A program made the position numbers and the translations under genes. Of a DNA stretch of 43,975 bases, positions 6,640 to 33,799 are shown piece after piece. The DNA comes from Candidatus Nomurabacteria bacterium (GTDB lineage: Bacteria; Patescibacteriota; Minisyncoccia; Phycocordibacterales; UBA9973), in the NCBI GenBank assembly GCA_943357245.1, contig CALRGH010000003.1, forward strand, positions 1 to 43,975. Direction: 5' to 3'. Below the pieces are notes generated by a model. The model searched no databases. It worked only from the letters and a program-made list of their open reading frames with translations, and was not told the DNA's origin. Position 1 is the stretch's first letter; the number at the start of each line of letters is the position of its first letter.

Positions 6640-6894
6640 ATGTATTTCATCTACATACTCCAATGTGCCGACAAGACATTGTATGTCGGTTCCACGAATA
6701 ATTTAGAGAAGCGACTGCATGCGCACAACAATTTAAAAAACGGTGCGCATTATACAAAAATTCGCCGGCCGGTGACACTTGTGTACTCCGAAAAAGTAAA
6801 AACGTATGCGAAAGCTCGCAAACAGGAGGCTTTATTAAAGCGATTGTCTCGTGCTGAAAAATTGGCACTCATTAAAAAATATAAAAACAAATAG
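6640..6894 (+). CDS. Small GIY-YIG nuclease (UPF0213/YazA-like)
   Basis: YFIYILQC..LYVGSTNNLEKRL..HN..GAHYTK.RRPV.LVYSE..A.K.E. Confidence 0.9.
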   Translation: MYFIYILQCADKTLYVGSTNNLEKRLHAHNNLKNGAHYTKIRRPVTLVYSEKVKTYAKARKQEALLKRLSRAEKLALIKKYKNK

Positions 6895-18997: not shown

Positions 18998-19591
18998 ATG
19001 TCATTTCTTGATCCAACAACTATTCTCACTGCAACTGGTTACGTCGGTCTCTTTTTAGCAGTATTTGCAGAGACAGGACTTTTAATTGGGGTGATGCTCC
19101 CAGGAGATAGTTTATTATTCGTTGCTGGATTTTTGGCGTTCACAAGTAATTTACATATTGTGTGGGTGATCGTCATCGCTTTTACCGCTTCCGTGATTGG
19201 CGATAGTACGGGGTACATGATTGGTAGAAAATATGGTCCTGCGGTTTTTGCTCGAGAAGAATCTTTCTTTTTTAAAAAATCATATGTAGAGCGCGCACGA
19301 CTTTTTTATGAAAAACACGGCGCAAAAACCATTGTCCTTGCGCGATTTATGCCAATCATTCGCACATTCGCGCCATTATTTGCCGGTATCGGAGGAATGA
19401 AGTACTCGCTTTTCTTTTTTTACAATGTTGTTGGTGGTGCATTGTGGACACTCTCGATGTGTCTCTTTGGTTATTTTTTAGGAAAAACAGTACCAAATGC
19501 AGACGCGTATGTATTACCCATCGTGATTGGACTCATTATTGTCTCGATGCTTCCAGGAGTTATCAAGCTTATCATGAGTAGAAATAAATAA
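18998..19591 (+). CDS. dedA: DedA/VTT family membrane protein
   Basis: FAETGLL..LPGDSLL..GDSTGY.IGRKYG..ARFMPIIRTFAP..AG. Confidence 0.92.
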   Translation: MSFLDPTTILTATGYVGLFLAVFAETGLLIGVMLPGDSLLFVAGFLAFTSNLHIVWVIVIAFTASVIGDSTGYMIGRKYGPAVFAREESFFFKKSYVERARLFYEKHGAKTIVLARFMPIIRTFAPLFAGIGGMKYSLFFFYNVVGGALWTLSMCLFGYFLGKTVPNADAYVLPIVIGLIIVSMLPGVIKLIMSRNK

Positions 19592-19649
19592 ACATCGATT
19601 TTTATTACTTGCTAGTACAATAAAGATGGTATACTTATCTTAATACATT

Positions 19650-20516
19650 ATGAAAAAAATTTTTGTAACAATTATTTTAGTCAGCACTTTTTTATCTACC
19701 CATATTGCTTTTGGAGCGGGTTCTATTTCGTTTATCGAACAACCGCTTTGGTTTTCAAGTGACACTTTTACGGAAGGGCAGACCGTTTCTATTTATACAG
19801 CACTTTTTAATCAAGAACCGAGTCATCTTACGGGGACTATTTCTTTTTATGATAGGTCTGTATTGTTGGGTGAAAAACAATTCACCATCAAACCTCGTAC
19901 CGTAGAAACTCTTTCGTTTGATTGGAAAGTAATTCCAGGGGAACATGTTATTTCTATCACTGTTGCAAAACTCTCTCGAATTAATGCGCAGGGAGTAAAA
20001 GAGTCAATTAGCAGTACCCCTATCACTATTGAAAGTAAGAAAATAACAGTTGGAAACACACCGACACAAACAGAGGTACAAGAAACACTTCCAACCACAG
20101 CAACAGAAGTACTTAATCAGGTAGACAATGCTCAAGAGAAAGCTGCCTCATTCATCCCCGCGCCTATTAGAAAAGTTGCTGAGGCTGTTTTTTCTGGTAT
20201 AGAAAAATTTAGAAGTGATACTGCGCTTGCGGTGAGTACAAATCGCAATACATTAAAATCTCAAATAATTGATCAAGAAATAAAAGAAGCTGCAGATAGT
20301 ACAGGAGATAATGCTATTGCTAAATATGAAGGCAATGTCGGTCAACACACCGTAGATGCAAAATCTGCGTTTTCAAAACCATTTGAACAGGTACGATTAT
20401 TTTTTCTCAATCTTGGGACAATGTTTTTCTCAAATAAATTTTTGTTTTATGGCATAAGCGCACTCTTTATCTATATGGGTATTCGAGCAATTGTCTTGTT
20501 TATTCGTTCAAGATAA
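19650..20516 (+). CDS. Secreted CARDB/Ig-like protein with C-terminal TM helix
   Basis: Signal peptide, EGQTVSIY..N..W...PGEH.I pattern, C-terminal hydrophobic segment. Confidence 0.65.
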   Translation: MKKIFVTIILVSTFLSTHIAFGAGSISFIEQPLWFSSDTFTEGQTVSIYTALFNQEPSHLTGTISFYDRSVLLGEKQFTIKPRTVETLSFDWKVIPGEHVISITVAKLSRINAQGVKESISSTPITIESKKITVGNTPTQTEVQETLPTTATEVLNQVDNAQEKAASFIPAPIRKVAEAVFSGIEKFRSDTALAVSTNRNTLKSQIIDQEIKEAADSTGDNAIAKYEGNVGQHTVDAKSAFSKPFEQVRLFFLNLGTMFFSNKFLFYGISALFIYMGIRAIVLFIRSR

Positions 20517-20517
20517 A

Positions 20518-20821
20518 CCTCCACACCAAACAACCTTAAGAATTATGTTCTCGCTGTATATTTTAAAAAGTTTAAAAGACGATAATTTGTACATTGGATC
20601 AACGAACGATTTGAAACGTAGATTGGGAGAACATAATTCAGGAAAAGTGGAATCAACTAGATTTAGGAGACCACTTAAACTCGTATACGCAGAAGCCTAT
20701 TCCGTTGAGGATGAGGCGAGGAAACGTGAACATAATCTTAAGTTGCGTGCAAAAGTGTGGAAACAACTTTCTCTTAGAATAAAGAAATCTCTCGCCTCAT
20801 AAGGTTGTTATGGTGTGGAGG
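20518..20821 (+). mobile_element. Putative GIY-YIG mini-element with terminal inverted repeats and TAAA target-site duplication
   Basis: Left end CCTCCACACCAAACAACCTTA, right end TAAGGTTGTTATGGTGTGGAGG (inverted, one indel); TAAA directly flanks both ends. Confidence 0.7.
20545..20802 (+). CDS. Small GIY-YIG nuclease (85 aa)
   Basis: LYILKS..LYIGSTNDLKRRL.EHN.G...ST..RRPLKLVYAEAY..A..RE..LK. Confidence 0.9.
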   Translation: MFSLYILKSLKDDNLYIGSTNDLKRRLGEHNSGKVESTRFRRPLKLVYAEAYSVEDEARKREHNLKLRAKVWKQLSLRIKKSLAS

Positions 20822-20862
20822 TAAACTTTTTCAATTCTTTATAAAAACTGTATAATGCGTTA

Positions 20863-21126
20863 ATGGTATTACGAATCATCGCCACCATTTGTGTAATCGG
20901 CGCATTACTTCTTGCGCCTTATTGGTTATTTATTGCGCTACTTATACTCGCTTGCCTGCTTCTACCCCTGTATATCGAAGGAGCTATTATCGCACTTGTA
21001 CACGATGCTTTTTTTAGTGCAACAGACGGACAACTGTTTGGTTTCAGATCTCTTACCTTTTTAATTGCCGTCGTGAGTATTACGGTTGTGTATATAGTAC
21101 GTAGAACAGTGCGAAAACGAACATAA
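20863..21126 (+). CDS. Small membrane protein, possibly a reduced MreD
   Basis: Entirely hydrophobic 87 aa; stop overlaps the mrdA start (TAATG). Confidence 0.55.
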   Translation: MVLRIIATICVIGALLLAPYWLFIALLILACLLLPLYIEGAIIALVHDAFFSATDGQLFGFRSLTFLIAVVSITVVYIVRRTVRKRT

Positions 21127-22853
21127 TGATACGATTCAGAAAAAAAAGGAGAATAAGAACAGATTTCGTTGAGCCTGACGAAATTTTTATTGATGCAAAA
21201 AATTTACCTGAATTTGACACACATCAATTTGAGGGTCGCATAGGACAATCGATTAGCAAAAAGACAATCATCACGCTCGGTATTATTTTTTTGATATTAG
21301 GAAGTGTTGGTGTTGGCAAATTAACGCTTTTGCAATTGGTACACGGACAAACCTATTTTGAAAAAAGTGAAAAGAATAGTCTTGATCAGAAACCAATTTT
21401 TGCAAATCGAGGCGTCTTTTATGATCGCAATGGATTGCAATTAGTAAAAAATGTATTTCCAGAAACACGGGCACTTTCGGTAGATGAGGGCATTCGTGCA
21501 TCAACAATGGAAGATGTGCCTAAACGTGATTACTATGATGCACCAGGATTTGCGCACGTGCTTGGCTATGTGAGTTATCCAAAACAGGACAACAATGGTG
21601 CGTATTGGCAAACAGAAGTAATTGGTAAAAGCGGTGCAGAGAAAGAATTTAATGACATGCTTGCAGGGAAAAACGGGAAGACACTTTTTGAACGTGATGC
21701 ACACGGTAACAGTATTTCAGAAAATCAGATTGATGCACCAGAAGATGGTAAAAATATTACCCTTTCTATCGATGCGCAACTGCAGGCAAAACTTTTTAGT
21801 GAGATGCAGTTATTTGCGGAAGCACATGATTTCTCTGGAGGTACAGGTATTATTATGAATGTAGAAAATGGGGAATTACTCGCACTGACAAATTATCCAG
21901 AATTTGATTCCGAAATCGTGTCTCTTGGGCATGATGCAACAAAAATAAAAGAATATCTGACTGATACTAGAACTCCATTTTTAAATCGTGCAATTGCAGG
22001 GCTCTACACACCAGGATCTATTGTGAAGCCATTTGTTGCTATGGGAGTGCTCGAAGAAAATATTATTGATCCGTACAGACAAATTCTCTCAACAGGACAG
22101 ATAGAAATTCCTAATCCGTACGATCCCGAATTGAAAACCATTTTCAAAGATAACAAAGCGCACGGACTTGTTGATTTGCGTCATGCTATTGCGGTGTCTT
22201 CAAACGTATATTTTTATGAAGTCGGAGGTGGCTATAAAGGGCAACAAGGACTCGGTATTGATCGGATTAATAAATATCTGACCCTTTTTGGGTTAGGTGA
22301 AAAAACAGGTACAGACATTGAAGGTGAAGCAGATGGTGTCATTCCAAATCCCGAGTGGAAAGCAAAACGATTTAATGGTGACATATGGCGTATTGGTGAT
22401 ACGTATAACACCGCAATTGGTCAGTATGGAGTGACGGTGACACCGCTTTCTATGGTGCGTGCAGTCGGAGCAATTGCAAATAACGGCACATTACTTACGC
22501 CAGTGATTCAAAAGGAGACAAAAGGAAAAGTTGAAACATTACCGTTTGAGTCTGAGAATTTCAACATAATCCACGAAGCAATGCGTTTGTGTGTGACTGA
22601 CGGCACGGGACAAACATTGAATACTCGTGATGTCGAGGTCGCAGTAAAAACAGGAACCGCGCAAGTTGGTATTTCAAAAAATTTACTTAACTCTTGGAGT
22701 ATGGGATTTTTCCCGTATGAAAATCCGAAGTACGCATTTATTATCATGATGGAACGTGGACCAAAAGAAAATCAGACGGGTTCATCTATTGTGATGCGTC
22801 ATGTGCTTGATTGGATGGCAGTGGAGGCGCCGGAATATTTAAAGAGCGAGTAA
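21126..22853 (+). CDS. mrdA: Penicillin-binding protein 2 (class B transpeptidase)
   Basis: TM helix, RG.FYDRNG, PGSIVKP (SxxK), SSN, KTGT. Confidence 0.9.
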   Translation: MIRFRKKRRIRTDFVEPDEIFIDAKNLPEFDTHQFEGRIGQSISKKTIITLGIIFLILGSVGVGKLTLLQLVHGQTYFEKSEKNSLDQKPIFANRGVFYDRNGLQLVKNVFPETRALSVDEGIRASTMEDVPKRDYYDAPGFAHVLGYVSYPKQDNNGAYWQTEVIGKSGAEKEFNDMLAGKNGKTLFERDAHGNSISENQIDAPEDGKNITLSIDAQLQAKLFSEMQLFAEAHDFSGGTGIIMNVENGELLALTNYPEFDSEIVSLGHDATKIKEYLTDTRTPFLNRAIAGLYTPGSIVKPFVAMGVLEENIIDPYRQILSTGQIEIPNPYDPELKTIFKDNKAHGLVDLRHAIAVSSNVYFYEVGGGYKGQQGLGIDRINKYLTLFGLGEKTGTDIEGEADGVIPNPEWKAKRFNGDIWRIGDTYNTAIGQYGVTVTPLSMVRAVGAIANNGTLLTPVIQKETKGKVETLPFESENFNIIHEAMRLCVTDGTGQTLNTRDVEVAVKTGTAQVGISKNLLNSWSMGFFPYENPKYAFIIMMERGPKENQTGSSIVMRHVLDWMAVEAPEYLKSE

Positions 22854-22930
22854 GTAGATAGTAGTAAATAGTAAATAGGTTCGAACAGAAAACTGTCTCA
22901 GTGTGTCATCCCGGCGGAGGCCGGGAACCA
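22849..22930 (+). repeat. Composite repeat: heptamer array plus GTCATCCC-type REP palindrome
   Basis: 39 nt block matching 25028-25066 with one mismatch, then GTCATCCCGGCGGAGGCCGGGAACCA. Confidence 0.75.
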
Positions 22931-22978
22931 GGCTGTTTTTGTTTGATTTTTATTATCTTTTTTGCTAAAGTACGATTA

Positions 22979-23446
22979 ATGCAAACGACATCAGAATTTA
23001 TATCAAGTGAGCGCCGTATTGAACTTGAAAAAGAGCTCAAAGAACTCCAAACAGTACAACGAAAATCAGTTATCGAAAAACTCGAATTCGCTAAGTCACT
23101 TGGCGACCTTTCAGAAAATGCGGAATATCACAGCGCGCGCGAAGAGCAGGCGCGTCTTGAAGAGCGCATCGCAAAAATAGAATATGTTTTAAAAACATCA
23201 AAAGTGATGGAACGACATTCAAGTTCCACTGTCGAAATCGGTTCGACAATAGTGATTAAAAAAGAAGGTTCGAGTGATCCCCTGAAAGTGTCTGTCGTTG
23301 GGACAGAAGAAACAGACATGCTAAAGGGTTACATCTCGCACCGATCTCCACTCGGTGCGGCTCTTTTAGGAAAGAACAAAGGCGATACAGTGAAAGTAAA
23401 TACACCAAAAGGAGCGATAGGGTATACGATAATTAGCATAGAGTAG
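22979..23446 (+). CDS. greA: Transcription elongation factor GreA
   Basis: GDLSENAEY, IS..SPLG.ALLG; start set at MQTTSEF. Confidence 0.95.
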   Translation: MQTTSEFISSERRIELEKELKELQTVQRKSVIEKLEFAKSLGDLSENAEYHSAREEQARLEERIAKIEYVLKTSKVMERHSSSTVEIGSTIVIKKEGSSDPLKVSVVGTEETDMLKGYISHRSPLGAALLGKNKGDTVKVNTPKGAIGYTIISIE

Positions 23447-23458
23447 GGTTTAGAAAAC

Positions 23459-23518
23459 ACAAAAGTGAGGCAAACTTTGTTTGCCTCACTTTTGTCATTC
23501 CGGACAAGCTTGTCGCCG
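23459..23518. repeat. 17 bp perfect hairpin plus partial GTCATTCCGG REP (may also act as a terminator)
   Basis: ACAAAAGTGAGGCAAAC-TTT-GTTTGCCTCACTTTTGT running into GTCATTCCGG. Confidence 0.65.
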
Positions 23519-23550
23519 TTCACTCTTCACTGTATACTTATCACTATTAT

Positions 23551-25032
23551 ATGGCCTCATTAGAAGAAATGCGCGCAGAGCGCTTGAAGAAATTAGCATT
23601 ATTAAAAACCGCTGGCATGGATGCATATCCTGCATCTATTTCGCGCGATATGAGCATTGCGGATGCAATTGCGCAGTTTGATACACTAGTTGATACTGAC
23701 AAGCAAATCTCGCTCGCAGGACGCGTGATGTCTATTCGCGGGCAAGGTGCGATTTTATTTGCAAACCTTTTTGATGGCACCGGCACTTTCCAGCTCTTTT
23801 TGAAAAAAGATGGCATGCCAGAAGATATCTTCGCCCTTTTTGTAAATACGGTAGACATGGGCGATTTTATTTCTGCCACAGGAACCTTCATCACGAGTAA
23901 AACTGGAGAGAAAACACTTCTTGTTTCCGGTTGGTCCATGGCATCAAAATCACTCCTTCCATTACCAGAAAAGTGGGCAGGACTTTCAGATGAAGATGAA
24001 CGGCTTCGCAAACGATACTTGGATGCTATTGGCAATCCAGAACTCTTTGCACGATTCCACAGTAGAGCAAACATCATCAAATATATCCGTGCATTTTTTG
24101 ATGCAAAAGGGTTTATGGAAATTGAAACACCTATTCTCCAAAATCAAGCTGGTGGTGCGATGGCAAAGACATTCAATACCCATCACAATGATTACGATAT
24201 GGACATGGTACTCCGCATCGCAATGGAGCTTGAGCACAAGATGATGATGGTTGCGGGCTATAATCGCATTTATGAAATCGGCAAAAATTTCCGCAATGAA
24301 GGCTCTGATCCAACACACATCCAAGAATTTACGATGATGGAATGGTATGCCGCGTATGAGACACTTGAGACGAATATAAAGTGGACCGAAGAATTACTCA
24401 AAGGACTCGCAAAAGACGTCATAGGGAAAATGTCTTTTATGATTGCAGGGGAAGATGGCGAAAAAGTCGAAGTGAATTTCGATGGCGTGTGGCCACGCGT
24501 TCGATTTGGTGATTTGCTCAAAGAAAATGCAAATCTTGATATGCAATCTGCAAGTGTGGATGATATCAAAGAATCAGCAAAAAAGTGGGGTATGGATGCC
24601 AAAGAAATCGCAACGACAGGTCGTGCGAATTTGCTCGACTTTATTTATAAAAAATCTTCTCGCAACAAAATAGTCCAACCGACATTTGTCATGGATTATC
24701 CCGGAGAATTAAAACCGCTCGCACAGCAAAATTCGGATGGTACTGCCTGCGTCGCACAGCTCATAATCTGCGGCGCAGAAATCACAAACCAATACGCAGA
24801 GCTTGTAAATCCAATTGTCGAACGCGAACTCTTCGAATCCCAAGCAAAAGCAAAAGCAGATGGAGACGCAGAAGCTATGGGTATGGATGAACGATTCCTT
24901 ACAGCAATGGAGCACGGTATGCCGCCAATGACTGGTTTTGGTCTTGGTATTGATCGTCTCGTTGCACTTCTTACCGAACAAGACAATCTCCGCGAAGTGA
25001 TTTTCTTCCCGATAATGAGACCAAAACAGTAA
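23551..25032 (+). CDS. lysS: Lysine--tRNA ligase (class II)
   Basis: OB-fold AGRVMSIR, EIETPIL..GGAMA, EIGKNFRNEG, GMPPMTGFGLGIDRL. Confidence 0.96.
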   Translation: MASLEEMRAERLKKLALLKTAGMDAYPASISRDMSIADAIAQFDTLVDTDKQISLAGRVMSIRGQGAILFANLFDGTGTFQLFLKKDGMPEDIFALFVNTVDMGDFISATGTFITSKTGEKTLLVSGWSMASKSLLPLPEKWAGLSDEDERLRKRYLDAIGNPELFARFHSRANIIKYIRAFFDAKGFMEIETPILQNQAGGAMAKTFNTHHNDYDMDMVLRIAMELEHKMMMVAGYNRIYEIGKNFRNEGSDPTHIQEFTMMEWYAAYETLETNIKWTEELLKGLAKDVIGKMSFMIAGEDGEKVEVNFDGVWPRVRFGDLLKENANLDMQSASVDDIKESAKKWGMDAKEIATTGRANLLDFIYKKSSRNKIVQPTFVMDYPGELKPLAQQNSDGTACVAQLIICGAEITNQYAELVNPIVERELFESQAKAKADGDAEAMGMDERFLTAMEHGMPPMTGFGLGIDRLVALLTEQDNLREVIFFPIMRPKQ

Positions 25033-25208
25033 GTAGATAGTAGTAAATAGTAAATAGATTCGAACAAAGCACAGAGCGGGAGAAAGCGAAGCTTTCTCCC
25101 GCTCTGTGTCATTCCGGACGCAGCGATAGCGGAGATCCGGAATCCATCGCGAATGAGCGAAGCAATGGATCCCCGGTTCTATCTGCGACAGATAGCCCGA
25201 GGATGACA
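25028..25208 (+). repeat. Composite repeat: heptamer array, 18 bp perfect hairpin, inverted REP pair (REPIN-like)
   Basis: CACAGAGCGGGAGAAAGC-GAA-GCTTTCTCCCGCTCTGTG, then TGTCATTCCGG..CCGGAATCCA and inverted TGGATCCCCGG..CCGAGGATGACA. Confidence 0.8.
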
Positions 25209-25219
25209 GAAAACAAATT

Positions 25220-25251
25220 AAAAAAGCCGAATCAGAGACGATTCGGCTTTT
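25220..25251. terminator. Bidirectional intrinsic terminator
   Basis: AAAAGCCGAATC-N6-GATTCGGCTTTT between convergent genes. Confidence 0.8.
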
Positions 25252-25259
25252 AGTTTTAA

Positions 25260-25568
25260 TTAGTCTGCAATTTCAAATTCTTGGTTTGTAGCAAAATAGA
25301 AAGTAGGATGAAGTCCTTCTTCGAACTTCTTATTTGGATGAAATTCATAACGAGGAAGCCTTTCTCCTGTATTAAAAATAACATCCACAGTATCAAATCC
25401 AAAATTAGATACTGACCCATGTTGAAGTTTCATTTTTACAGTCTCGCCATTTCTAGGCATTTCTAAGAAATGAAGAGTTGGTCCATTTTCATTACCAATC
25501 CCAACAGGACACATAGTTGTTTTCGCACAGAGTGCAATAGTATCAATTTTTATTTTTATTTGTGGCAT
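25260..25568 (-). CDS. Hypothetical protein (about 102 aa)
   Basis: ORF with its own minus-strand TTGACA-N16-TATAGT promoter, which overlaps the upstream ATG and so favours the start at 25568. Confidence 0.55.
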   Translation of the reverse strand: MPQIKIKIDTIALCAKTTMCPVGIGNENGPTLHFLEMPRNGETVKMKLQHGSVSNFGFDTVDVIFNTGERLPRYEFHPNKKFEEGLHPTFYFATNQEFEIAD

Positions 25569-25701
25569 AACAAATGTTTTCTTCACTATACTCATTCTTT
25601 TGTACCTGTCAAATATTTTAGAACCTAACAACTAGAAACTAGAACCTTGCTCTGCTATACTTGTCTTGTCTCTACTTACTACTAACTATTTACTACTTAC
25701 T

Positions 25702-26112
25702 ATGTTGTTACAAATCATCATCGCTGTTATTGTCTCTATGATCCTTGGTTTTATTTGGTACGGACCGCTTTTTGGAAAAGTGTGGGGTAAAATTGTGGGA
25801 GTTGATATGGAGACTGCGAAAAATGATCCAGAAGTGAAAAAGCGTATGCCGTTAATGGCTGCAACTAATATGGCGCTTTCACTTGTTACTATTTTTATGC
25901 TCGCGGTTATTTTCAAACGACTTGACGTTACTGATGTGACAACAGGTGTTCGTGTCGCATTTTTTCTCTTCGTTGGTTTTATTTTTCCTCTCATAGGTAC
26001 GTTTGCTCTTTGGAGTAGTAAATCGCGCCGTCTCGCATGGGAAATGTTTTTCGTGATGATGGGCTATCAGCTTATTATGTTTGTATTTTACGGGATTATT
26101 CTTTCGTTTTAA
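25702..26112 (+). CDS. DUF1761 family membrane protein
   Basis: LGFIWYGPLFGK.W motif and four TM segments. Confidence 0.8.
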   Translation: MLLQIIIAVIVSMILGFIWYGPLFGKVWGKIVGVDMETAKNDPEVKKRMPLMAATNMALSLVTIFMLAVIFKRLDVTDVTTGVRVAFFLFVGFIFPLIGTFALWSSKSRRLAWEMFFVMMGYQLIMFVFYGIILSF

Positions 26113-26167
26113 GGAAACAAAAGAAAGGGTATAGGATTTAGCGTCTAGGGTATAGAAACAATCTACC

Positions 26168-26299
26168 GCGGAAGGATTCTAAAGCCTTGCGCAGTGCGGC
26201 GGCACGAGCAGAGCAATTTTTCAGCAGAAAAATATGCGTGCTTTAAAATCCTTTCGCAAAAACCTTTTTTTGGTTACTTTTTCGCGGAGAAAAAGTGAC
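26168..26299. repeat. MITE-like imperfect palindromic element
   Basis: GCGGAAGGATTCTAAAGC pairs with GCTTTAAAATCCTTTCGC (16/18); inner ATTTTTC/GAAAAAT; trailing GTTACTTTTTC/GAAAAAGTGAC hairpin. Confidence 0.55.
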
Positions 26300-26387
26300 A
26301 AGACTACTTTTTTTGACAAAAAGTCATTTTTGACTCCGAATTATAGAAGCGTTTCCACCGCCAGTGCTACAGTGCTATACTCTCGAC

Positions 26388-27509
26388 ATGAAAACGATTA
26401 TCAAGAAAATAGGTGTGAGCGCTTGCGTAGCACTTGTTGCGGTATTAACCGCATCTCATTTAGTAGTAGCGGAGACAGGTAGTGTAAAAGTTGATACAAA
26501 AGCAGTAGTCGCTGTCCCTACACTTACTAGCGTCGTATCAAACGATGATATTCCTGCAGATTTTAATGGACTTACCTTTCGTTCAAGTGCATTCCACGCG
26601 AAAGCAGTAACTCTTTTTGCTGCATCACTTGCAGCTGAAGTTGCTGGCAAAACAGACGATGCAGAATACTGTGAAGCCGTAGACCGTGCCTTTATGCGCC
26701 AAGCGCCACTTGTCCGTGCATCATTTGCTTGGGATGCAGAAAGTTATAAAGATTCATTTTCCGCTATAGATAAAACTGTCGCTGAAAAACAATATGGCGC
26801 TGATGGGGTAAATGGCTATGTTGCTATTGGGACCGAAGTTGCAGGACTTACTGCAAAAGAAGGTGCACTTGTTGCAATCCAAGCATCTCGCGCAAAAGCA
26901 ATTATGCGTTCAAGCATGCTCGCATTATTACTCGATGGAAAAGCAAATGAGACAACGATTGCAAATTTGAAGTCACTCTATAGTGCAGGAGAACGCTGTG
27001 TAGCTTTTTTCTCAAATGATACAAAAACAACAGAGGTACTTGCAAAAACACACAAAATTGTCCTTGAAGAATCAGTTACTGTTACTGTAGATGAGACAGT
27101 GAGTGTTAGTGCTAAAGATTTGACCGGCGAAGCACGCACTGTTCCAAAAGTAACGTCTGTTGGTACACGTACAGAGCTCCGTGAGTACTCGCTTGCAGTT
27201 CTTGCAAACAATCCTGAAATTCGGAGTATTACTGCCACAAAAGATGTAGTAACGGTAAAATTTGTTGAACGAGGCCGATTCCTTGGATTTATTCCAACGT
27301 GGATTACTCGTAAAGTGACCGTTACACCAACCGATATAAAATTTGCAGGTGCTGCACTTTCCAAAAAATCAGGTAATTATGTACAAGCTGATTTGAAGAC
27401 TGCAATTGATGCTGTTGTAAAATCAGGAGATACATCATTCTCAAATACAACACAAGCAATGATTATCGGTACGGTTGTCGGCTACATCGAAACACCAGTT
27501 ACTAAATAA
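26388..27509 (+). CDS. Secreted hypothetical protein
   Basis: Signal-peptide-like N-terminus; TATACT 6 nt before ATG; downstream terminator. Confidence 0.75.
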   Translation: MKTIIKKIGVSACVALVAVLTASHLVVAETGSVKVDTKAVVAVPTLTSVVSNDDIPADFNGLTFRSSAFHAKAVTLFAASLAAEVAGKTDDAEYCEAVDRAFMRQAPLVRASFAWDAESYKDSFSAIDKTVAEKQYGADGVNGYVAIGTEVAGLTAKEGALVAIQASRAKAIMRSSMLALLLDGKANETTIANLKSLYSAGERCVAFFSNDTKTTEVLAKTHKIVLEESVTVTVDETVSVSAKDLTGEARTVPKVTSVGTRTELREYSLAVLANNPEIRSITATKDVVTVKFVERGRFLGFIPTWITRKVTVTPTDIKFAGAALSKKSGNYVQADLKTAIDAVVKSGDTSFSNTTQAMIIGTVVGYIETPVTK

Positions 27510-27529
27510 ATCCTCATTTCGAAATAGAA

Positions 27530-27570
27530 ATAAAATCCGACACTCGTCAAGAGTGTCGGATTTTATATTT
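27530..27570 (+). terminator. Intrinsic terminator
   Basis: ATAAAATCCGACACTC-N5-GAGTGTCGGATTTTAT. Confidence 0.8.
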
Positions 27571-27633
27571 TGTATTAGAATACTCAGTCGACACTCTTTT
27601 AATTAAAAAACAAATAAAACCCCATAAATAAGT

Positions 27634-28779
27634 ATGACAAAGACAAAAAATTTACTCATCAAAAAAAATGAAAATCACAGTAAAGGATTTTCAAGTGCCA
27701 CTGCACGATACGCGCGCAAATTTTTTAAATCAGAATACGGTGTGCGTATTTCTTTTGACGGCTGTATGGATGGCCGTGTGTATTTTTCAACAATAACTGG
27801 TATACAAGCTGGATATATTGATGAAACATTTAAAGTTGCCGGTACAAAATTTGAACTTGGTCATCCGTATTTTGGGCAGATCAAAGAACAATGGTGCCGT
27901 GGGAATATTTCGCAAGGATTTCGGTCATTGCAAATCATTTCGTACCATTTTTCTGCATCAGACAAACATCTTGGTTGCAAAGGACATGGGTATGACACTG
28001 AAAAAGCGCGACAGTGGACATGTAATCTTGCAGAACAGTATCGTATTATGCACGACACTGAAGGTCAAAGATTTTTGCCGATTGTTGTTGGAATTGAAAC
28101 AGATTCCTGTTCACTTGTTATTCATGGAAAAGATCCAAGTCAGACATTTGAAGTGCTGAAGTATCAAGATGCATCAGCGGAAGACATCAAAGAACAATTA
28201 TTTGATTTATTTCCAGGAGCTGCGGATCAGTTACTCTCTGTTGTTGTTGAATTTATTTTAGGTAATCAAAAATACATTCACACACATTCACAAGCAGTGA
28301 TTAAAAAATTAGTTACTGCTGATCATGCTGAACGGGTACTTGCGCTCGGTCGTGGTATTGAATGGGTTTTTCAAACAACTGATGAACAGGCTGATGCTCC
28401 ACTCAATAATTTTGCGCTTTGGGTGTGTCCGTTTACTGATGATTACAAAGTGCATATCGATGTAGCATTTGATGTATTAGCGGGAAATATTGAAAAAGGG
28501 AATATTGATCCCGAAGATGGTATCGTATTTCTTTCATCAGGTATGTATGGCGCCAAAGAATGGGATCCTAGCAAAGAACACGCATTGTTTAAAGCAGATT
28601 TTTTTGAACGAGTTATAAAAGATCGTTTTAAAGAATCAAAATCTTTTGAGAAATTACTTCCATATGTAACTTTCTTACAAGTGGTGATTAATCGTCAAAC
28701 TCGTGAGATGGAAATTATCAAAGAAGAAATTGCAAAAGAAGTAATGGTCGCAAAGGAGCAATTAGTTGAAGCTAATTAA
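27634..28779 (+). CDS. CsoSCA-like (beta-class) carbonic anhydrase
   Basis: CMDGR and HFS..D.HLGCKGH zinc-ligand motifs with the spacing seen in carboxysome shell carbonic anhydrase. Confidence 0.65.
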   Translation: MTKTKNLLIKKNENHSKGFSSATARYARKFFKSEYGVRISFDGCMDGRVYFSTITGIQAGYIDETFKVAGTKFELGHPYFGQIKEQWCRGNISQGFRSLQIISYHFSASDKHLGCKGHGYDTEKARQWTCNLAEQYRIMHDTEGQRFLPIVVGIETDSCSLVIHGKDPSQTFEVLKYQDASAEDIKEQLFDLFPGAADQLLSVVVEFILGNQKYIHTHSQAVIKKLVTADHAERVLALGRGIEWVFQTTDEQADAPLNNFALWVCPFTDDYKVHIDVAFDVLAGNIEKGNIDPEDGIVFLSSGMYGAKEWDPSKEHALFKADFFERVIKDRFKESKSFEKLLPYVTFLQVVINRQTREMEIIKEEIAKEVMVAKEQLVEAN

Positions 28780-28792
28780 AGACTATCCAAGT

Positions 28793-28828
28793 AAACCCCA
28801 CCGTATACGGTGGGGTTTTTGTTTTTTT
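28793..28828 (+). terminator. Intrinsic terminator
   Basis: Perfect palindrome AAACCCCACCGTATACGGTGGGGTTT followed by T-runs. Confidence 0.8.
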
Positions 28829-28850
28829 GAGATAGCGTATAATCAAATAT

Positions 28851-30776
28851 ATGGAAGCATTTGATGAAGCGTACAAAGAGTTAAACAAAGCCCAAAAAGA
28901 AGCGGTGGATACCATTGAAGGACCAGTCATGGTTATTGCGGGTCCGGGAACAGGGAAGACGCAAATCCTCACGCTTCGTATTGCAAATATTCTTGCGAAG
29001 ACCGACACCGAACCAGAAAATATTTTGGCGCTGACGTTTACCGAAGCCGCGACCCACAACATGCGCCGTCGGTTGGCAGAGCTTATCGGCAATAGCGCCT
29101 ATCGCGTTGTTATAAATACCTTCCATGGATTTTGTAATGATATCATTCGCCGATTTCCAGAAGATTTTCCACGCATCATTGGTTCAAAAAGTATTACTGA
29201 AGTGGATCAAGTTGCAATTATCGAAACCGTCATAGAAGAAGGTGATTTTGTATTACTTAAACCATTCGGTGATAAATTTTTATATGTCCGCGATATTGTC
29301 GGCTCTATTAGTGAGCTCAAACGAGAAGGTGTCACGCCAGAAGATTTTGCAGAGCGTATAAAAGCTGAGCAAAAAGAATTTGCACATATTCCGGATCTTT
29401 ATCACGACAAAGGTGCGCACAAAGGCAAGATGAAAGGCGATTATCAAAAGCTTGAACGAAAATTATTAAAAAATGAAGAACTTGCGCGGGTGTACCAGCT
29501 CTACCAAGATGCGCTTACCGAGAAAAAACAATACGACTTTAATGATATGATTTTGGAAGTCAAAAAGGCATTAGAGCAAAATAAAAGTCTTCTGCAAATA
29601 CTCCAAGAAGAACATCAATATGTGCTTGTCGACGAACATCAAGATACCAACAATGCGCAGAACAAGATTGTAGAGCTTCTGATGAGCTATCACTCCTCAC
29701 CAAACCTATTTGTCGTGGGAGATGAAAAGCAGGCAATCTTCAGGTTCCAAGGTGCGTCACTTGAAAACTTTCAGTATTTTAAACACAGCTATCCGAAGGT
29801 GAAATTAATCACGCTTACGGAAAACTACCGCTCCACCCAAACAGTGCTTGATACGGCGGAGCGGCTCCTTGCTTCGCAATCACCGCTCCGCAAAAATGCT
29901 CCTCATACTGAATTACCTATTCGCATCGCTGAATTTGCGACTGATGCAAGCGAACGATATTTTATTGCGCATGATATACAAGAGAAAATCAATCCGCCAA
30001 ATCCGCCAGCTGGCGGAGGCGGAGGTGTGGCTCCAGAAGATATTGCGATTTTATATAGAAACAACAAAGATGCATTTCCAATTGCGCGAGATCTAGCACG
30101 GCTTGGCATCCCGCACACTATCGAATCTGATCAAGAGTTGTTTACTCAGAGCGATGTGCGCACCCTTTTAATAATACTTGACGCTGTCGCAAATTATGGA
30201 AAAGAAGAAAAGATTACTGCACTTCTTCACTTGCCACTATTTGCTATTGACCCACTTGATACGTACAAAACACTCCGTAAGGCCGCAGATTTGCGAAAAA
30301 ATAATCTTTACGATTTACTTGATACAAGCGAAGTAAAAGATATTGCAGAACTGGGTATCAAATTGAAAAATTGGGTAAAAGAAAGTAAAAAAATAGATCT
30401 GTTGAATTTCTTCGAACACATTATTCGCGATTCAGGATTATTGGAAGATATGCTTGGCTCCGGAAATGCCGGCGAGCGATTTGATGCGGTAAATGCGCTC
30501 TTTGATGAAGTGAAGCAATTAGTTGAAATAAAAAATGACGCAACACTCGCTGACTTCTTTGTCTATATTGAAACAATTAAAAAACACAAACTATTCTTAA
30601 AACGAAAAGCGCAGGGCAATGCAAAAGGCAAAGTCCGTCTCATGACTGCACATCGCTCCAAAGGTCTTGAATTCGCACACGTCTATATCATCCGTGCCCA
30701 AGATGGCATTTGGGGAGGGAAGATAGATAGGGATCGATTGCCGTTGATTGAAAGTGTGTATAAATTGGTAAAATAA
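28851..30776 (+). CDS. UvrD/PcrA-like ATP-dependent helicase, N-terminal part (motifs Q and I-V)
   Basis: LNKAQ, AGPGTGKT, LTFT, LVDEHQD, VGDEKQAIFRFQG, ENYRS, MTAHRSKGLEF; stops before motif VI. Confidence 0.9.
   Translation: MEAFDEAYKELNKAQKEAVDTIEGPVMVIAGPGTGKTQILTLRIANILAKTDTEPENILALTFTEAATHNMRRRLAELIGNSAYRVVINTFHGFCNDIIRRFPEDFPRIIGSKSITEVDQVAIIETVIEEGDFVLLKPFGDKFLYVRDIVGSISELKREGVTPEDFAERIKAEQKEFAHIPDLYHDKGAHKGKMKGDYQKLERKLLKNEELARVYQLYQDALTEKKQYDFNDMILEVKKALEQNKSLLQILQEEHQYVLVDEHQDTNNAQNKIVELLMSYHSSPNLFVVGDEKQAIFRFQGASLENFQYFKHSYPKVKLITLTENYRSTQTVLDTAERLLASQSPLRKNAPHTELPIRIAEFATDASERYFIAHDIQEKINPPNPPAGGGGGVAPEDIAILYRNNKDAFPIARDLARLGIPHTIESDQELFTQSDVRTLLIILDAVANYGKEEKITALLHLPLFAIDPLDTYKTLRKAADLRKNNLYDLLDTSEVKDIAELGIKLKNWVKESKKIDLLNFFEHIIRDSGLLEDMLGSGNAGERFDAVNALFDEVKQLVEIKNDATLADFFVYIETIKKHKLFLKRKAQGNAKGKVRLMTAHRSKGLEFAHVYIIRAQDGIWGGKIDRDRLPLIESVYKLVK
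29993..30023. repeat. Nested in-frame palindromic insertion
   Basis: TCCGCC-AAA-[TCCGCCAGCTGGCGGA]-GGCGGA, read as NPPNPPAGGGG. Confidence 0.75.
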
Positions 30777-30804
30777 AAAACCAGCTTGTATTGCTGGTTT
30801 TTTT
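30775..30804. terminator. Bidirectional intrinsic terminator
   Basis: AAAAAACCAGC-N7-GCTGGTTTTTT. Confidence 0.75.
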
Positions 30805-30822
30805 AACTAATTCAAATTTTGG

Positions 30823-31332
30823 TTATTTTTTTATTACCGCAAAGATCCAGTCATTGTGAAATCCATTTTTAGGGTTCATTGTATTTCCTGCTGAACATAC
30901 AATTCTAAGATTGTCTTCGCCGTGATAATGAATACCATGGGGTGTAAGCCATACCTGTTTACCTTTAGAATTTATTAGTAGATTTTTTTCATCTAAAAAA
31001 GCAGTGTCAAAATAAAATCTAACAGTTTCTCGCGGATATTGTGTGAGAAAACCTAATAAATAAGGTGCTGGTGCAGGTTTAAAGCCTCTTCTATTTATTT
31101 CTATCAAGATTTCTCCCAGCAAAAAAGAATCGTAGCCAGGTTTCTTCATTGAAATAAAAGTAACTAATTCAGGTTTTGTTTCAGGACTTTGAAACTCTAA
31201 TTGAGAGCGCAAAACATTATTGTTTAATCCCCATTTTAGATTAAATTTTTCTAAGTTATCTTTAATATTATTTTCAGGGGTAATCAGAAAACTAGGTTCT
31301 GACTCCCTTAATTTTTCAGTTTCCTTTTCCAT
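30823..31332 (-). CDS. Hypothetical protein inserted between the helicase halves
   Basis: AT-rich 169 aa ORF with its own TTGACA-N17-TACTAT promoter (31390-31362). Confidence 0.7.
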   Translation of the reverse strand: MEKETEKLRESEPSFLITPENNIKDNLEKFNLKWGLNNNVLRSQLEFQSPETKPELVTFISMKKPGYDSFLLGEILIEINRRGFKPAPAPYLLGFLTQYPRETVRFYFDTAFLDEKNLLINSKGKQVWLTPHGIHYHGEDNLRIVCSAGNTMNPKNGFHNDWIFAVIKK

Positions 31333-31427
31333 TTTTTGTTGTTTTAATGAGCTTTGATAATATAGTATCATATTTATGTATAAATGTCAACTAAACCAAA
31401 CATCAATAAAATTGATAGAATAGAGAG

Positions 31428-32558
31428 GTGAAAAAAGAGAGTAAAAAAATAGAAAAGGAAAAGGCGACCCTAAATCCTGTGAGCCCACAGGATCGGGGAA
31501 CCGACGATGAACGACGATTATTTTACGTCGCGCTCACTCGGGCAAAAGAATCGGTGACGATTACCTATGCGCGCGAAGATGCGGAACGACGAGAGACACT
31601 GCCGTCGGCATTTATCGATGAAATTAAATCTGAGCTAGTAGAGCAAGTAGCGACGGAGGAATGGGAGGAGAAATTTAAGGACGATAGAGGGTTTCAGTTT
31701 CAATCTACCTCACCCCAGCCCTCTCCTTATCAAGGAGAGGGGGACGGACAAGACAACAAAGCATTCGTTCAAGAACTATTCGATAAGCAAGGGCTTTCAC
31801 CAACGGCGCTTAATAATTATTTGGAATGTCCATGGAAATATTTTTATCAAAATCTTATTCGTATTCCGTCTGCGCCGACCATCCATCAAGCGTATGGTAT
31901 TGCCGTGCACGCTGCACTCCAAGATCTTTTCTCAATATTAAAGAAGGAAGATAAAGGTAAGTCATTCTTGCTCGACAGTTTTGAAGGACATCTGAATCGC
32001 CAATTCGTATCAGAACGAGATAGAGTGTCACTCCTCGAAAAAGGAAAAAAGTCTCTCGGCGGCTGGTATGACACGTATAGTGAGTCATGGAATATCAATG
32101 TGAACACAGAATTTAGAATTAACGGCATTATGCTTGGTACTGTCCGCCTTACGGGAGTGCTTGATAAAGTAGAATTTATCGAAGACAATATTGTAAACGT
32201 GGTGGATTATAAAACAGGAAAACCAAAGACACGCAATGACGTGATGGGAAATACCAAATCTTCAAACGGTAATTATTATCGTCAGCTCGTGTTTTATAAG
32301 TTACTACTCACACATTTCAATGATGGTGCCTACAGTATGCAATCCGGCACGATTGATTTTATAGAGCCGGATGACAAAGAAAATTATCATAAAGAAACAT
32401 TTGAAATTTCAGATGAAGAAGTTCGTGAGCTTACGACCACAATCCAGAGAGTTGCCGACGAAATTACAACACTCGCATTTTGGGATACAACCTGCGAGAA
32501 TAGTCCGCCAGCTGGCGGATGTGAGTTTTGTAATTTGCGGTCTTTGATGAAAAAATAA
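31428..32558 (+). CDS. Helicase C-terminal part (motif VI) fused to a PD-(D/E)XK nuclease (AddA/AdnB-like)
   Basis: ERRLFYVALTRAKE, LSPTALNNYLECP, G.LDKVE..VVDYKTG, QLVFY, C-terminal C..CEFC. Confidence 0.88.
   Translation: MKKESKKIEKEKATLNPVSPQDRGTDDERRLFYVALTRAKESVTITYAREDAERRETLPSAFIDEIKSELVEQVATEEWEEKFKDDRGFQFQSTSPQPSPYQGEGDGQDNKAFVQELFDKQGLSPTALNNYLECPWKYFYQNLIRIPSAPTIHQAYGIAVHAALQDLFSILKKEDKGKSFLLDSFEGHLNRQFVSERDRVSLLEKGKKSLGGWYDTYSESWNINVNTEFRINGIMLGTVRLTGVLDKVEFIEDNIVNVVDYKTGKPKTRNDVMGNTKSSNGNYYRQLVFYKLLLTHFNDGAYSMQSGTIDFIEPDDKENYHKETFEISDEEVRELTTTIQRVADEITTLAFWDTTCENSPPAGGCEFCNLRSLMKK
31707..31743. repeat. In-frame REP-like palindrome
   Basis: ACCTCACCCCAG-CCCTCTCCTT-ATC-AAGGAGAGGG, read as TSPQPSPYQGEG. 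Confidence 0.7.
32504..32519. repeat. In-frame 16 bp perfect palindrome (second copy)
   Basis: TCCGCCAGCTGGCGGA, identical to 30002-30017, read as SPPAGG. Confidence 0.8.
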
Positions 32559-32575
32559 TTAATTTCTTTGCTATA

Positions 32576-32612
32576 CCCCCACACCAACTTTTAAAAAAGT
32601 CTGGTGTGGGGG
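32576..32612. mobile_element. Non-autonomous 37 bp palindromic element sharing ends with the GIY-YIG mini-element
   Basis: CCCCCACACCA..TGGTGTGGGGG flanked by TATA on both sides. Confidence 0.65.
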
Positions 32613-32626
32613 TATACTATATCTGT

Positions 32627-33799
32627 ATGAATCTTTTTGGTATTTCTTCTAAAAACCACACCGAACTCATCATCGATATCGGCTCTTCGAGTGTCGGTGT
32701 TGGATTTGTCCAATATGCACAAGATGCGCTTCCTCGTATTCTTTTTATCACCCGTAAAGAAGTGCTTTTTGATGAGTCTGTAGACGCAACACATATTTTA
32801 GAAAAAACGGCGAACTTACTCGATATTGCACTCCGCGAGGCAACTACCGGTGCGCATTTTACTCATCCTGACCGCATCACCATTTCACTTGCTGCGCCAT
32901 GGTACGCAAGTCAAGTGCGCAGTGTTCGGTATACCGATGATGGAAAAAAATTTAGAGTGACGAAATCTCTTGCTGAAGGACTCATTCAAACAGAATATAA
33001 AGCATTTCTCAAAGACCTGCAGGCGTCGCCTTTTTTTGATGCACTTAATGCTGAAATAATTACGAACAGTGTTGTGGATTCAAAAATAAATGGGTATAGC
33101 ATCAAAGATCCACTGGGTTCACAAGGCACCTCATGTGCATTTGATGTATATTTTGCAGTAGCTTCACGTGACGCGAATAAACGATTCCACGCGCTTGTGC
33201 AGGAATATTTTCCTCGTGCACGACATATTCGGTTTACTGCATTTGGATTTGCATCATGGCTGGCCTTTCGAACTATATTTCCGCACACCGATGAATATCT
33301 TTTTTTGGATATAGGTGGAGAAATTACTGATGCAATGGTAGTGCGGGACATGGTTCCTCGGAGTGGTGGTTCATTCCCATACGGTAAACACACCATGCTC
33401 CGCGCATTCGCTACGGCAACAGGCTCGGAAGGTGAGCACACACTTTCGTTATGTAATTTGTATCAAACGCACATGCTTGGTGAAAAAGAACGTACCACTA
33501 TCGATGCAGTGCTCCAAACCACTCGCAAAGAATGGCATACCAAACTCGAGACTGCTATTGAGACAATAGAAACAGGGTTGTTGCCGTACAAAGTATTTGT
33601 CACCATCGATGCAGACTGTGCGCCGTGGTTTTTGGAAATGTTACGCAATCAAGCACTTCGACAGTTTGTTGATACGTCGCAACAGTTTGACGTCACCTTA
33701 ATTGATGCAAATGTCGTGCAATCATATGTTACAATAGAAGCACAAGCATCTCCTGACTCGTTTATTATATTGCTCGCCATTGCAAATAACACTCTATAA
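32627..33799 (+). CDS. FtsA/PilM-like actin-fold protein (divergent)
   Basis: IIDIGSSSV and FLDIGGEITD phosphate-loop motifs, SFPYG. Confidence 0.7.
   Translation: MNLFGISSKNHTELIIDIGSSSVGVGFVQYAQDALPRILFITRKEVLFDESVDATHILEKTANLLDIALREATTGAHFTHPDRITISLAAPWYASQVRSVRYTDDGKKFRVTKSLAEGLIQTEYKAFLKDLQASPFFDALNAEIITNSVVDSKINGYSIKDPLGSQGTSCAFDVYFAVASRDANKRFHALVQEYFPRARHIRFTAFGFASWLAFRTIFPHTDEYLFLDIGGEITDAMVVRDMVPRSGGSFPYGKHTMLRAFATATGSEGEHTLSLCNLYQTHMLGEKERTTIDAVLQTTRKEWHTKLETAIETIETGLLPYKVFVTIDADCAPWFLEMLRNQALRQFVDTSQQFDVTLIDANVVQSYVTIEAQASPDSFIILLAIANNTL

Follow-up and report, generated by a model that had tools for sequence, protein, structure and literature searches.

A 37-bp palindrome in a promoter hexamer of a Nomurabacteria genome: probably a gene-less member of a mobile family linked to a small GIY-YIG nuclease

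A 37-bp palindrome lies between two TATA tetranucleotides, directly upstream of a gene, in a contig of Candidatus Nomurabacteria bacterium. Is it an ordinary regulatory hairpin of the host, or is it mobile DNA that has landed in a promoter? The window (the whole stretch of DNA that was analysed, 43,975 nucleotides) also carries a longer element that has nearly the same ends and encodes a GIY-YIG nuclease. We conclude, with a probability of about 0.8, that the palindrome is a gene-less, MITE-like member of a mobile family linked to this type of nuclease, and that it inserted into a −10 box with duplication of TATA. The traits assigned to the family, namely 11-bp terminal inverted repeats (CCCCCACACCA and compensated variants) and a 4-bp target-site duplication, are held with equally good confidence. 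The full-size form is ~280-320 bp long and has one gene, for a single-domain GIY-YIG nuclease of 84-85 aa.

Positions 32572-32618 read TATA-CCCCCACACCA-ACTTTTAAAAAAGTC-TGGTGTGGGGG-TATACT, and 8 further nucleotides lead to an ATG at 32627. The palindrome itself (32576-32612, CCCCCACACCA-N15-TGGTGTGGGGG) consists of a left terminal inverted repeat (32576-32586), an inner 15 nt (32587-32601) with a 5-bp secondary stem, a 4-nt loop and an unpaired C (32601) beside the right arm, and a right terminal inverted repeat (32602-32612). The arms are perfect 11-bp inverted repeats, and the left one also ends GIY-YIG-bearing elements in other genomes. The TATA on either side, described in an earlier reading of the sequence alone (the sequence-only reading), is present. 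The left TATA (32572-32575), together with the preceding TGC, is what is left of the original extended −10 box, and the right TATA (32613-32616) plus CT (to 32618, forward strand) completes the gene-proximal −10 hexamer TATACT. Removing the element and one TATA in silico gives TGCTATACT, an extended −10 box 8 nt before the ATG, exactly as that reading had proposed.

The palindrome has a folding energy of −19.4 kcal/mol as single-stranded DNA (z = −7.95; none of 200 shuffles was as stable). The fold has a 15-pair outer stem that includes TATA/TATA, the unpaired C beside the right arm, and a 5-pair inner stem. The window contains 15 matches to the arm CCCCCACACCA at up to two mismatches, where 3.87 would be expected, and none of 100 shuffles reaches 15. 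Given this excess, the z-score of the fold and zero matches to a reversed paired-arm control, a chance origin of the arm pattern is excluded.

The upstream gene (31428-32558, forward strand) encodes a protein with PD-(D/E)XK nuclease and UvrD_C domains (Pfam), and 17 nt separate the end of its stop codon from the element. The downstream gene (32627-33799, forward strand) encodes a protein of 390 aa, for which no match was found in Pfam or PDB sequence searches. In the ESM Atlas, 11-99% of the members of the nearest clusters are annotated with PF14450 FtsA or PilM. Because only this language-model hint points to FtsA/PilM, the earlier label 'FtsA-like' is kept as a lead and not as a finding.

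The longer member of the family in the window is a 304-bp element (20518-20821, forward strand) with arms CCTCCACACCA and TGGTGTGGAGG. They differ from the arms of the palindrome by one substitution, compensated on both sides, in agreement with the original description. Its sole gene (20545-20802, forward strand) encodes an 85-aa GIY-YIG nuclease (Pfam PF01541, E = 2.3e-16, 60.3 bits against a cut-off of 22.6, residues 2-67 covered) that retains the positions conserved among 79 homologues; the element encodes no recognised transposase. The paired ends extend over ~21 bp, with a 1-nt bulge placed as in the 37-bp copy. The element lies between two TAAA tetranucleotides (20514-20517 and 20822-20825), and the TAA stop of the upstream ORF (19650-20516) falls within the left one. 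The inner sequences of the short copies (ACTTTT..AAAAGT) and of this resident copy (AACAACCTTA..TAAGGTTGTTA) differ, as does the third base of the arm. On these grounds, the short copies are not recent deletion products of the resident GIY-YIG copy.

We scanned the genome under study (G000; 563,906 bases, 88.55% complete) for the paired arms, as the sequence-only reading had suggested, and found 13 matches, with none for the reversed control. When mismatches are allowed, 16 intact short copies (36-101 bp) are present besides the GIY-YIG copy, and there are at least three further copies that are decayed or truncated. All 16 short copies have perfect 11-bp arms, are flanked by TATA/TATA and lie outside long ORFs; the GIY-YIG copy is flanked by TAAA/TAAA. 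Arm substitutions are compensated in the opposite arm in three of the 16, and a 1-nt bulge lies beside one arm in ten. The bulge is on the side of the gene in six copies and on the opposite side in one, numbers too small to claim a relationship. One copy (C22:4354) sits between a start codon and a tRNA gene. Read depth in contigs of the probable source run (Logan) is ~257 at the palindrome and ~20 in its flanks, which fits a multi-copy repeat with roughly a dozen copies. The palindrome is a member of a multi-copy repeat family, and not a single-copy terminator.

The family is found in other genomes of the order. In an order-wide sample, the paired-arm pattern was detected in 29 of 401 genomes and 25 of 224 genera, and the reversed control in three genomes. 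Copy sizes are continuous from 28 to 165 bp, and the inner sequences are unrelated. In two genomes, tRNA genes lie between CCCCCACACCA and TGGTGTGGGGG arms that are not accompanied by a target duplication (G277:C2:1510-1628 and G077:C12:79574-79682). These could be captured cargo, or each could represent two adjacent elements.

TATA is its own reverse complement, so the short copies of G000 alone cannot settle whether their flanks are duplicated. We therefore tabulated the 4-nt flanks of 110 copies pooled from many genomes. Identical flanks occur in 63, and in 36 of these the tetranucleotide is not palindromic (TAAA, TTTA, CCTG, TTGA and TTAT, for example). By group, identical flanks were counted for 17/18 copies in G000, 6/8 in a same-genus genome (G001), 18/34 in the order sample and 22/50 at loci of nuclease homologues. 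Controls in which the flanks were shifted by 4, 8 or 12 nt gave at most one match per group, and for none of 80 non-palindromic left flanks does the right flank give the reverse complement. Among the 47 copies that do not have identical flanks, some are one base off and some have an arm boundary offset by one. The 18 duplications among 32 copies at 31 loci in other genomes include TATA (5), TAAA (4), TTTA (3), CCTG (2) and CTTG, CATG and TTTT (one each), and a 104-bp copy in G001 is flanked by TTTA/TTTA. The identical non-palindromic flanks, set against zero or one match in the shifted controls, establish that the 4-bp target duplication is genuine. The targeting of TAWA that had been inferred from the window holds for G000; the duplicated tetranucleotides of the family as a whole are varied, although mostly A/T-rich.

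The duplication also depends on size. It is TATA for 23 of the 28 copies of up to 60 bp, and for none of the 21 copies longer than 200 bp, where TTAT/ATAA, TTGA, TTTA and others are found. This may reflect a different specificity or selection, and the comparison is confounded by lineage. Where full-size GIY-YIG elements have duplicated TTGA, one side reads TTGACA (L106, L142, L144 and L192, the last at G021:C24), which looks like a −35 hexamer. The TTAT/ATAA duplications (nine cases) read TTATCC.

Comparison with G001 (50 contigs, 565,270 bases, 87% complete; flanks 82-93% identical) provided filled and empty versions of the same sites. For ten of the 17 G000 copies, both flanks could be aligned with G001. 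The element is missing there at nine of these loci and common to both genomes at one. At two of the nine (C18:5136, cttgcTATACTatacc, and C9:12771) the two genomes differ by precisely the element and one TATA; the G001 sequence at the site orthologous to C18:5136 is caattcttgcTATACTataccc-ATG. The shared filled site (C11:7731 in G000, C21:4922 in G001) has unchanged arms and three changes in the inner 16 nt, and one decayed 71-bp copy is also common to both genomes. At the site orthologous to the 37-bp copy, G001 reads ccTTTATACTtatgcatATG, which lacks the element and has a single TATACT, spaced 7 nt from the orthologous ATG; thus, the site is empty and is not conserved there as an ordinary terminator. 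The GIY-YIG element is likewise missing from its orthologous locus. In the reverse comparison, the G001 copies C26:862 and C17:8635 correspond to empty sites in G000, each with a single TATACT. Thus, each of these two congeneric species has precise empty sites where the other is filled, which implies gains or losses in both lineages since their split. Within the population, no read-through form without the element was seen at the site in Logan contigs from four public runs (window 19500-33500), a type of assembly that drops rare variants.

Two further observations were made in G001. At ~14316-14345 of contig C8, orthologous to C4:36830 of G000, the sequence TATAccccacacaac is possibly the decayed left arm of an old copy. 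The spacer orthologous to that of the 37-bp copy (locus L010, contig C19, ~2395-2480) holds a gene-less pair of Ssn-type hairpins (GTGTCATCCCGATGAAAATCGGGAACCAGGC ... GCCTGG...), so a different GIY-YIG-linked repeat occupies the same spacer.

The sites occupied by the short copies are not random with respect to promoters. In G000, the spacing from TATAMT to the ATG of ORFs of at least 80 codons peaks sharply at 6 nt (42 of 76 sites). TATACT is commoner than TATAAT. Among 131 element-free TATAMT promoters, TG occurs 2-3 bases upstream of the hexamer in 56, and no −35 signal was found across the set. Judged by these patterns, promoters in this genome look leaderless and of the extended −10 type, with the layout TATAMT-N6-ATG. 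TATAMT is present on one side of 15 of the 16 short copies (background, 34%). In ten of the 16, a spacer of 4-13 nt separates the flanking hexamer from the start codon (ATG) of an ORF of 80 codons or more, an arrangement that holds for 8.9% of all TATA sites and 14.3% of those outside ORFs (P ~1e-5). A TATA/TATAMT context also surrounds short copies in genomes of five other genera (G004, G128, G176, G270 and G422). The short copies are thus strongly biased toward −10 hexamers beside start codons. The bias may arise from easily melted DNA being the preferred substrate; equally, it may arise from the survival of only those insertions that spare the promoter.

The claim that the −10 box stays intact after insertion stands for the hexamer and fails for its extension: TATACT is regenerated, and the TG of the extended −10 box is now 41 bp away. 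The G-rich end of the element places a G at the −14 equivalent, the best-conserved upstream position. A promoter-like match (TTTAAA-17-TATACT) spans the loop of the element. We dropped the loop TTTAAA as a candidate −35 box, given that the 131 natural leaderless promoters have no −35 signal.

How firmly are the ends tied to the nuclease? Copies with exact ends enclose an 84-85 aa GIY-YIG ORF in three other genomes (G303, G064 and G419), with proteins 59.5-65.9% identical to that of the window; the G000 element is a one-substitution variant. A scan for homologues, with one genome per species, gave 80 loci (46-77% identity), mostly in Patescibacteria. Both arms, with up to two mismatches, bracket the GIY-YIG ORF at 39 of the 80. 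Among the remaining loci with enough flanking sequence, ~13 of 34 show variant arms with a C[CG]CACAC core. Arm variants around the homologues are compensated (CCCCCACACCT/AGGTGTGGGGG, CCCGCACACTA/TAGTGTGCGGG and TCCCCACACCA/TGGTGTGGGGA), and the full-size elements have 4-bp duplications that vary in sequence. Since the arms bracket the ORF across genomes, vary in a compensated way and have their own 4-bp duplications, the nuclease gene and the ends form one unit that inserts whole. Among 41 relatives, the exact-end pattern was found in six, a full-length homologue (at least 53% identity) in six, and both in three. We did not retain this co-occurrence as a test of the link, as the homologues in G010, G018 and G021 use the CCCCCACACCT variant, which is invisible to the pattern.

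Other candidate enzymes were sought. No DDE_Tnp_1, DDE_Tnp_1_2 or DDE_5 domain (IS4/IS5/IS701-type) was detected in G000 (88.55% complete) or G001 (87%), and neither genome has arm pairs 320-4000 bp apart. G000 encodes two HUH Y1 proteins (Y1_Tnp; C6:17966-18208 and C2:26959-27192), and these genes have different, REP-like hairpins (ACCCAGGAGGC..GCCTCCTGGGT on C6, CCTGTGTGAGGC..GCCTCACACAGG on C2).

We propose the following sequence of events. The 37-bp copy probably inserted into the TATA of the extended −10 box TGCTATACT of a leaderless-type promoter, and the duplication rebuilt TATACT next to the gene, with the G-rich end of the element providing a G at the −14 equivalent. The GIY-YIG nuclease would recognise the stem that arises when the two ends pair, whether as single-stranded DNA or as an extruded cruciform, cut at the base of this stem and make a 4-nt staggered cut in A/T-rich target DNA. 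Ligation and gap filling by the host would complete the move, and short copies could thus be mobilised in trans. GIY-YIG enzymes hydrolyse DNA, and no strand-joining or strand-transfer chemistry is known for them, so the host ligation step must be assumed. Granted that the family is mobile and that the palindrome is an insertion, we rate the chances that the nuclease is the mobilising enzyme and that the strands are rejoined in this manner as slightly better than even. The earlier suggestion of a non-autonomous derivative is supported by the multi-copy family, the gene-bearing partners with the same ends, the duplicated flanks and the empty sites; mobilisation in trans by the nuclease is an inference.

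Alternatively, the family could be mobile with the GIY-YIG gene as a cargo, addiction or homing module, the elements being moved in trans by another enzyme (an unrecognised transposase, or host recombination or repair). The chemistry known for GIY-YIG nucleases would suit this explanation. G001 (87% complete) has at least seven short copies, yet no nuclease of the window subfamily was found in it; the duplication spectra of short and full-size copies differ; and the tRNA genes in G277 and G077 indicate that the arms can enclose other cargo. We nevertheless consider it unlikely. The sole protein found inside the ends always belongs to the same GIY-YIG subfamily (the four exact-end cases and 39 of the 80 homologue loci), and the arm variants co-vary with it. 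Moreover, domains of the 4-bp-duplicating DDE families and longer arm pairs were not found in the two genomes, and the HUH genes have hairpins of their own. It is also conceivable that the short palindromes are primary (as elements or as host sites) and that the GIY-YIG ORF arrived later, by homing into the hairpin loop, in which case the 37-bp copy would be an empty target. The ORF is always central in the palindrome, homing endonucleases of the free-standing GIY-YIG kind are well established, and ORF-bearing copies are outnumbered by short ones. But the short copies, which have duplications and empty orthologous sites, are insertions in their own right, and full-size elements have their own non-TATA duplications (0/21 are TATA), which indicates that they insert as whole units. 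The continuous sizes (28-165 bp) and unrelated inner sequences also speak against homing into a loop, and we regard this history as quite improbable.

The question with which we began, whether the palindrome is an ordinary cis-element of the host (a terminator of the upstream gene, or an operator on the promoter side), draws its force from the position of the hairpin just past a stop codon and directly upstream of a −10 box, from the very stable stem, and from the one copy that is kept in both G000 and G001 with invariant arms. An intrinsic terminator was rejected as a candidate: no T-run follows the stem, a terminator scan made no call, and the position is not conserved in G001. The empty site there and the precise indels of an element plus 4 bp at other loci largely refute a host cis-element. 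Together with the non-palindromic duplicated flanks and the patchy occurrence of identical ends across 25 genera, they reduce its probability to a few in a hundred at most, although later co-option of individual copies by the host is possible.

The gene-less, nuclease-linked mobile family that we favour resembles several known systems in part. Bacterial MITEs, such as the Correia/NEMIS elements of Neisseria, are short and gene-less, lie between genes, are bounded by terminal inverted repeats and duplicate their target, and promoter boxes are rebuilt or newly formed by their ends. The palindrome shares all of these features. Unlike those elements, it is far smaller (37 bp), its duplication is of 4 bp and not TA, and its partner encodes a GIY-YIG nuclease and not a DDE transposase. 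REP/REPIN sequences with their RAYT (HUH Y1) proteins, and IS200/IS605, use a tyrosine HUH enzyme and make no target duplication. The likeness lies in extragenic palindromes, probably forming DNA hairpins, that are tied to a small nuclease gene with the same flanking repeats. The differences are the target duplication and the fact that the Y1 genes of G000 are flanked by hairpins of the ACCCAGGAGGC and CCTGTGTGAGGC types. In free-standing GIY-YIG homing, the gene is copied by recombination into one cognate site, and inverted ends and target duplications are lacking. Here too a small nuclease gene would be selfish, but there are many unrelated insertion sites.

The closest published parallel is that of the Ssn proteins, ~94-aa GIY-YIG nucleases (CDD family cd10448) that cleave single-stranded DNA immediately upstream of a hairpin repeat (NTS/SRM), inverted copies of which flank the gene (Chenal et al., Nat Commun 2025; PMC11893778). 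The authors liken this layout to an insertion sequence and offer mobility as a hypothesis only; the sections of the paper drawn on here present no target duplications or empty sites (PMC11893778). As in the Ssn/SRM layout described in those sections, the family reported here has a single-domain GIY-YIG protein of ~90 aa (85 in this case), and its gene is bracketed by an inverted repeat that is scattered mostly in intergenic regions. The difference from what is described there is that the two ends are simple 11-bp repeats that pair with one another, neither being a hairpin by itself. The SRM pattern, as published in the sections used (PMC11893778), matches 0/17 copies, a weak test in that it also missed the Ssn-like flanks on contig C1 of G000. 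By eye, the GTCAT..GGAAT signature of the SRM is absent from the copies. Titles and abstracts retrieved by a full-text literature search describe no GIY-YIG transposon or element with inverted ends and target duplication.

G000 has a classical Ssn/SRM example of its own, the gene at C1:62267-62551 (reverse strand), which is flanked by Ssn-type compound hairpins (GTCATCC-hairpin-GGATCC). The window protein is 38-39% identical to this SRM-flanked paralogue and lacks the C-terminal stretch ending in NPQWEDL. The solved structures nearest to the window protein are UPF0213 proteins (4e-7), which the C1 paralogue matches at only 0.06. Two other small GIY-YIG genes were noted in G000. One (C10:22350-22580, reverse strand) lies between CCCAGCACTTAG and CTAAGTGCTGGG; the other, at 6640-6894 of the window, has no visible inverted repeat around it.

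Known bacterial insertion sequences fall into DDE, HUH, serine, tyrosine and DEDD classes. If the nuclease drives movement, the chemistry of transposition would lie outside these classes. We put forward, tentatively and at somewhat less than even odds, that the family represents a new class of bacterial transposon. An 85-residue GIY-YIG nuclease would be the sole function encoded by the element. It would recognise the stem of the 11-bp ends and, with host repair, move itself and 28-100-bp hairpins into promoter hexamers (TATAMT; TTGACA in relatives), the 4-bp duplication keeping the hexamer readable. If this is true, these gene-less hairpins would be among the smallest mobile DNAs known. A role of the nuclease in movement would also give a concrete, testable case for the idea, raised for Ssn/SRM, that small GIY-YIG genes and hairpin repeats are mobile. 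The family also illustrates how ultra-small genomes of Patescibacteria tolerate mobile DNA: insertions occupy −10 boxes of leaderless genes, where the box is rebuilt by the duplication. For annotation, such 37-bp palindromes should not be called terminators. The 85-aa protein and its 11-bp recognition stem could serve as a small structure- or sequence-specific DNA tool.

Other repeats were identified in the same DNA. A second palindromic repeat, with the core CCCTCTCC-TTATCAA-GGAGAGGG, lies at 31700-31755 of the window, inside the PD-(D/E)XK/UvrD_C ORF. BLAST matches to it number 3 in G000 and 19 in G001, and there are many in G004; the G001 orthologue of the PD-(D/E)XK/UvrD_C gene has the repeat as well (C19:1528-1568). 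A stop-codon-rich 20-mer, TAGTAGATAGTAGTAAGTAG, and variants with up to three mismatches occur at 29 sites in G000, of which those in the window are at 22852, 25031, 25672 (reverse strand) and 38151 (reverse strand). This 20-mer adjoins the hairpin copies C11:7731 and C8:18071, and forms the arms of the longest inverted repeat of the window (25022-25058 and 25671-25707).
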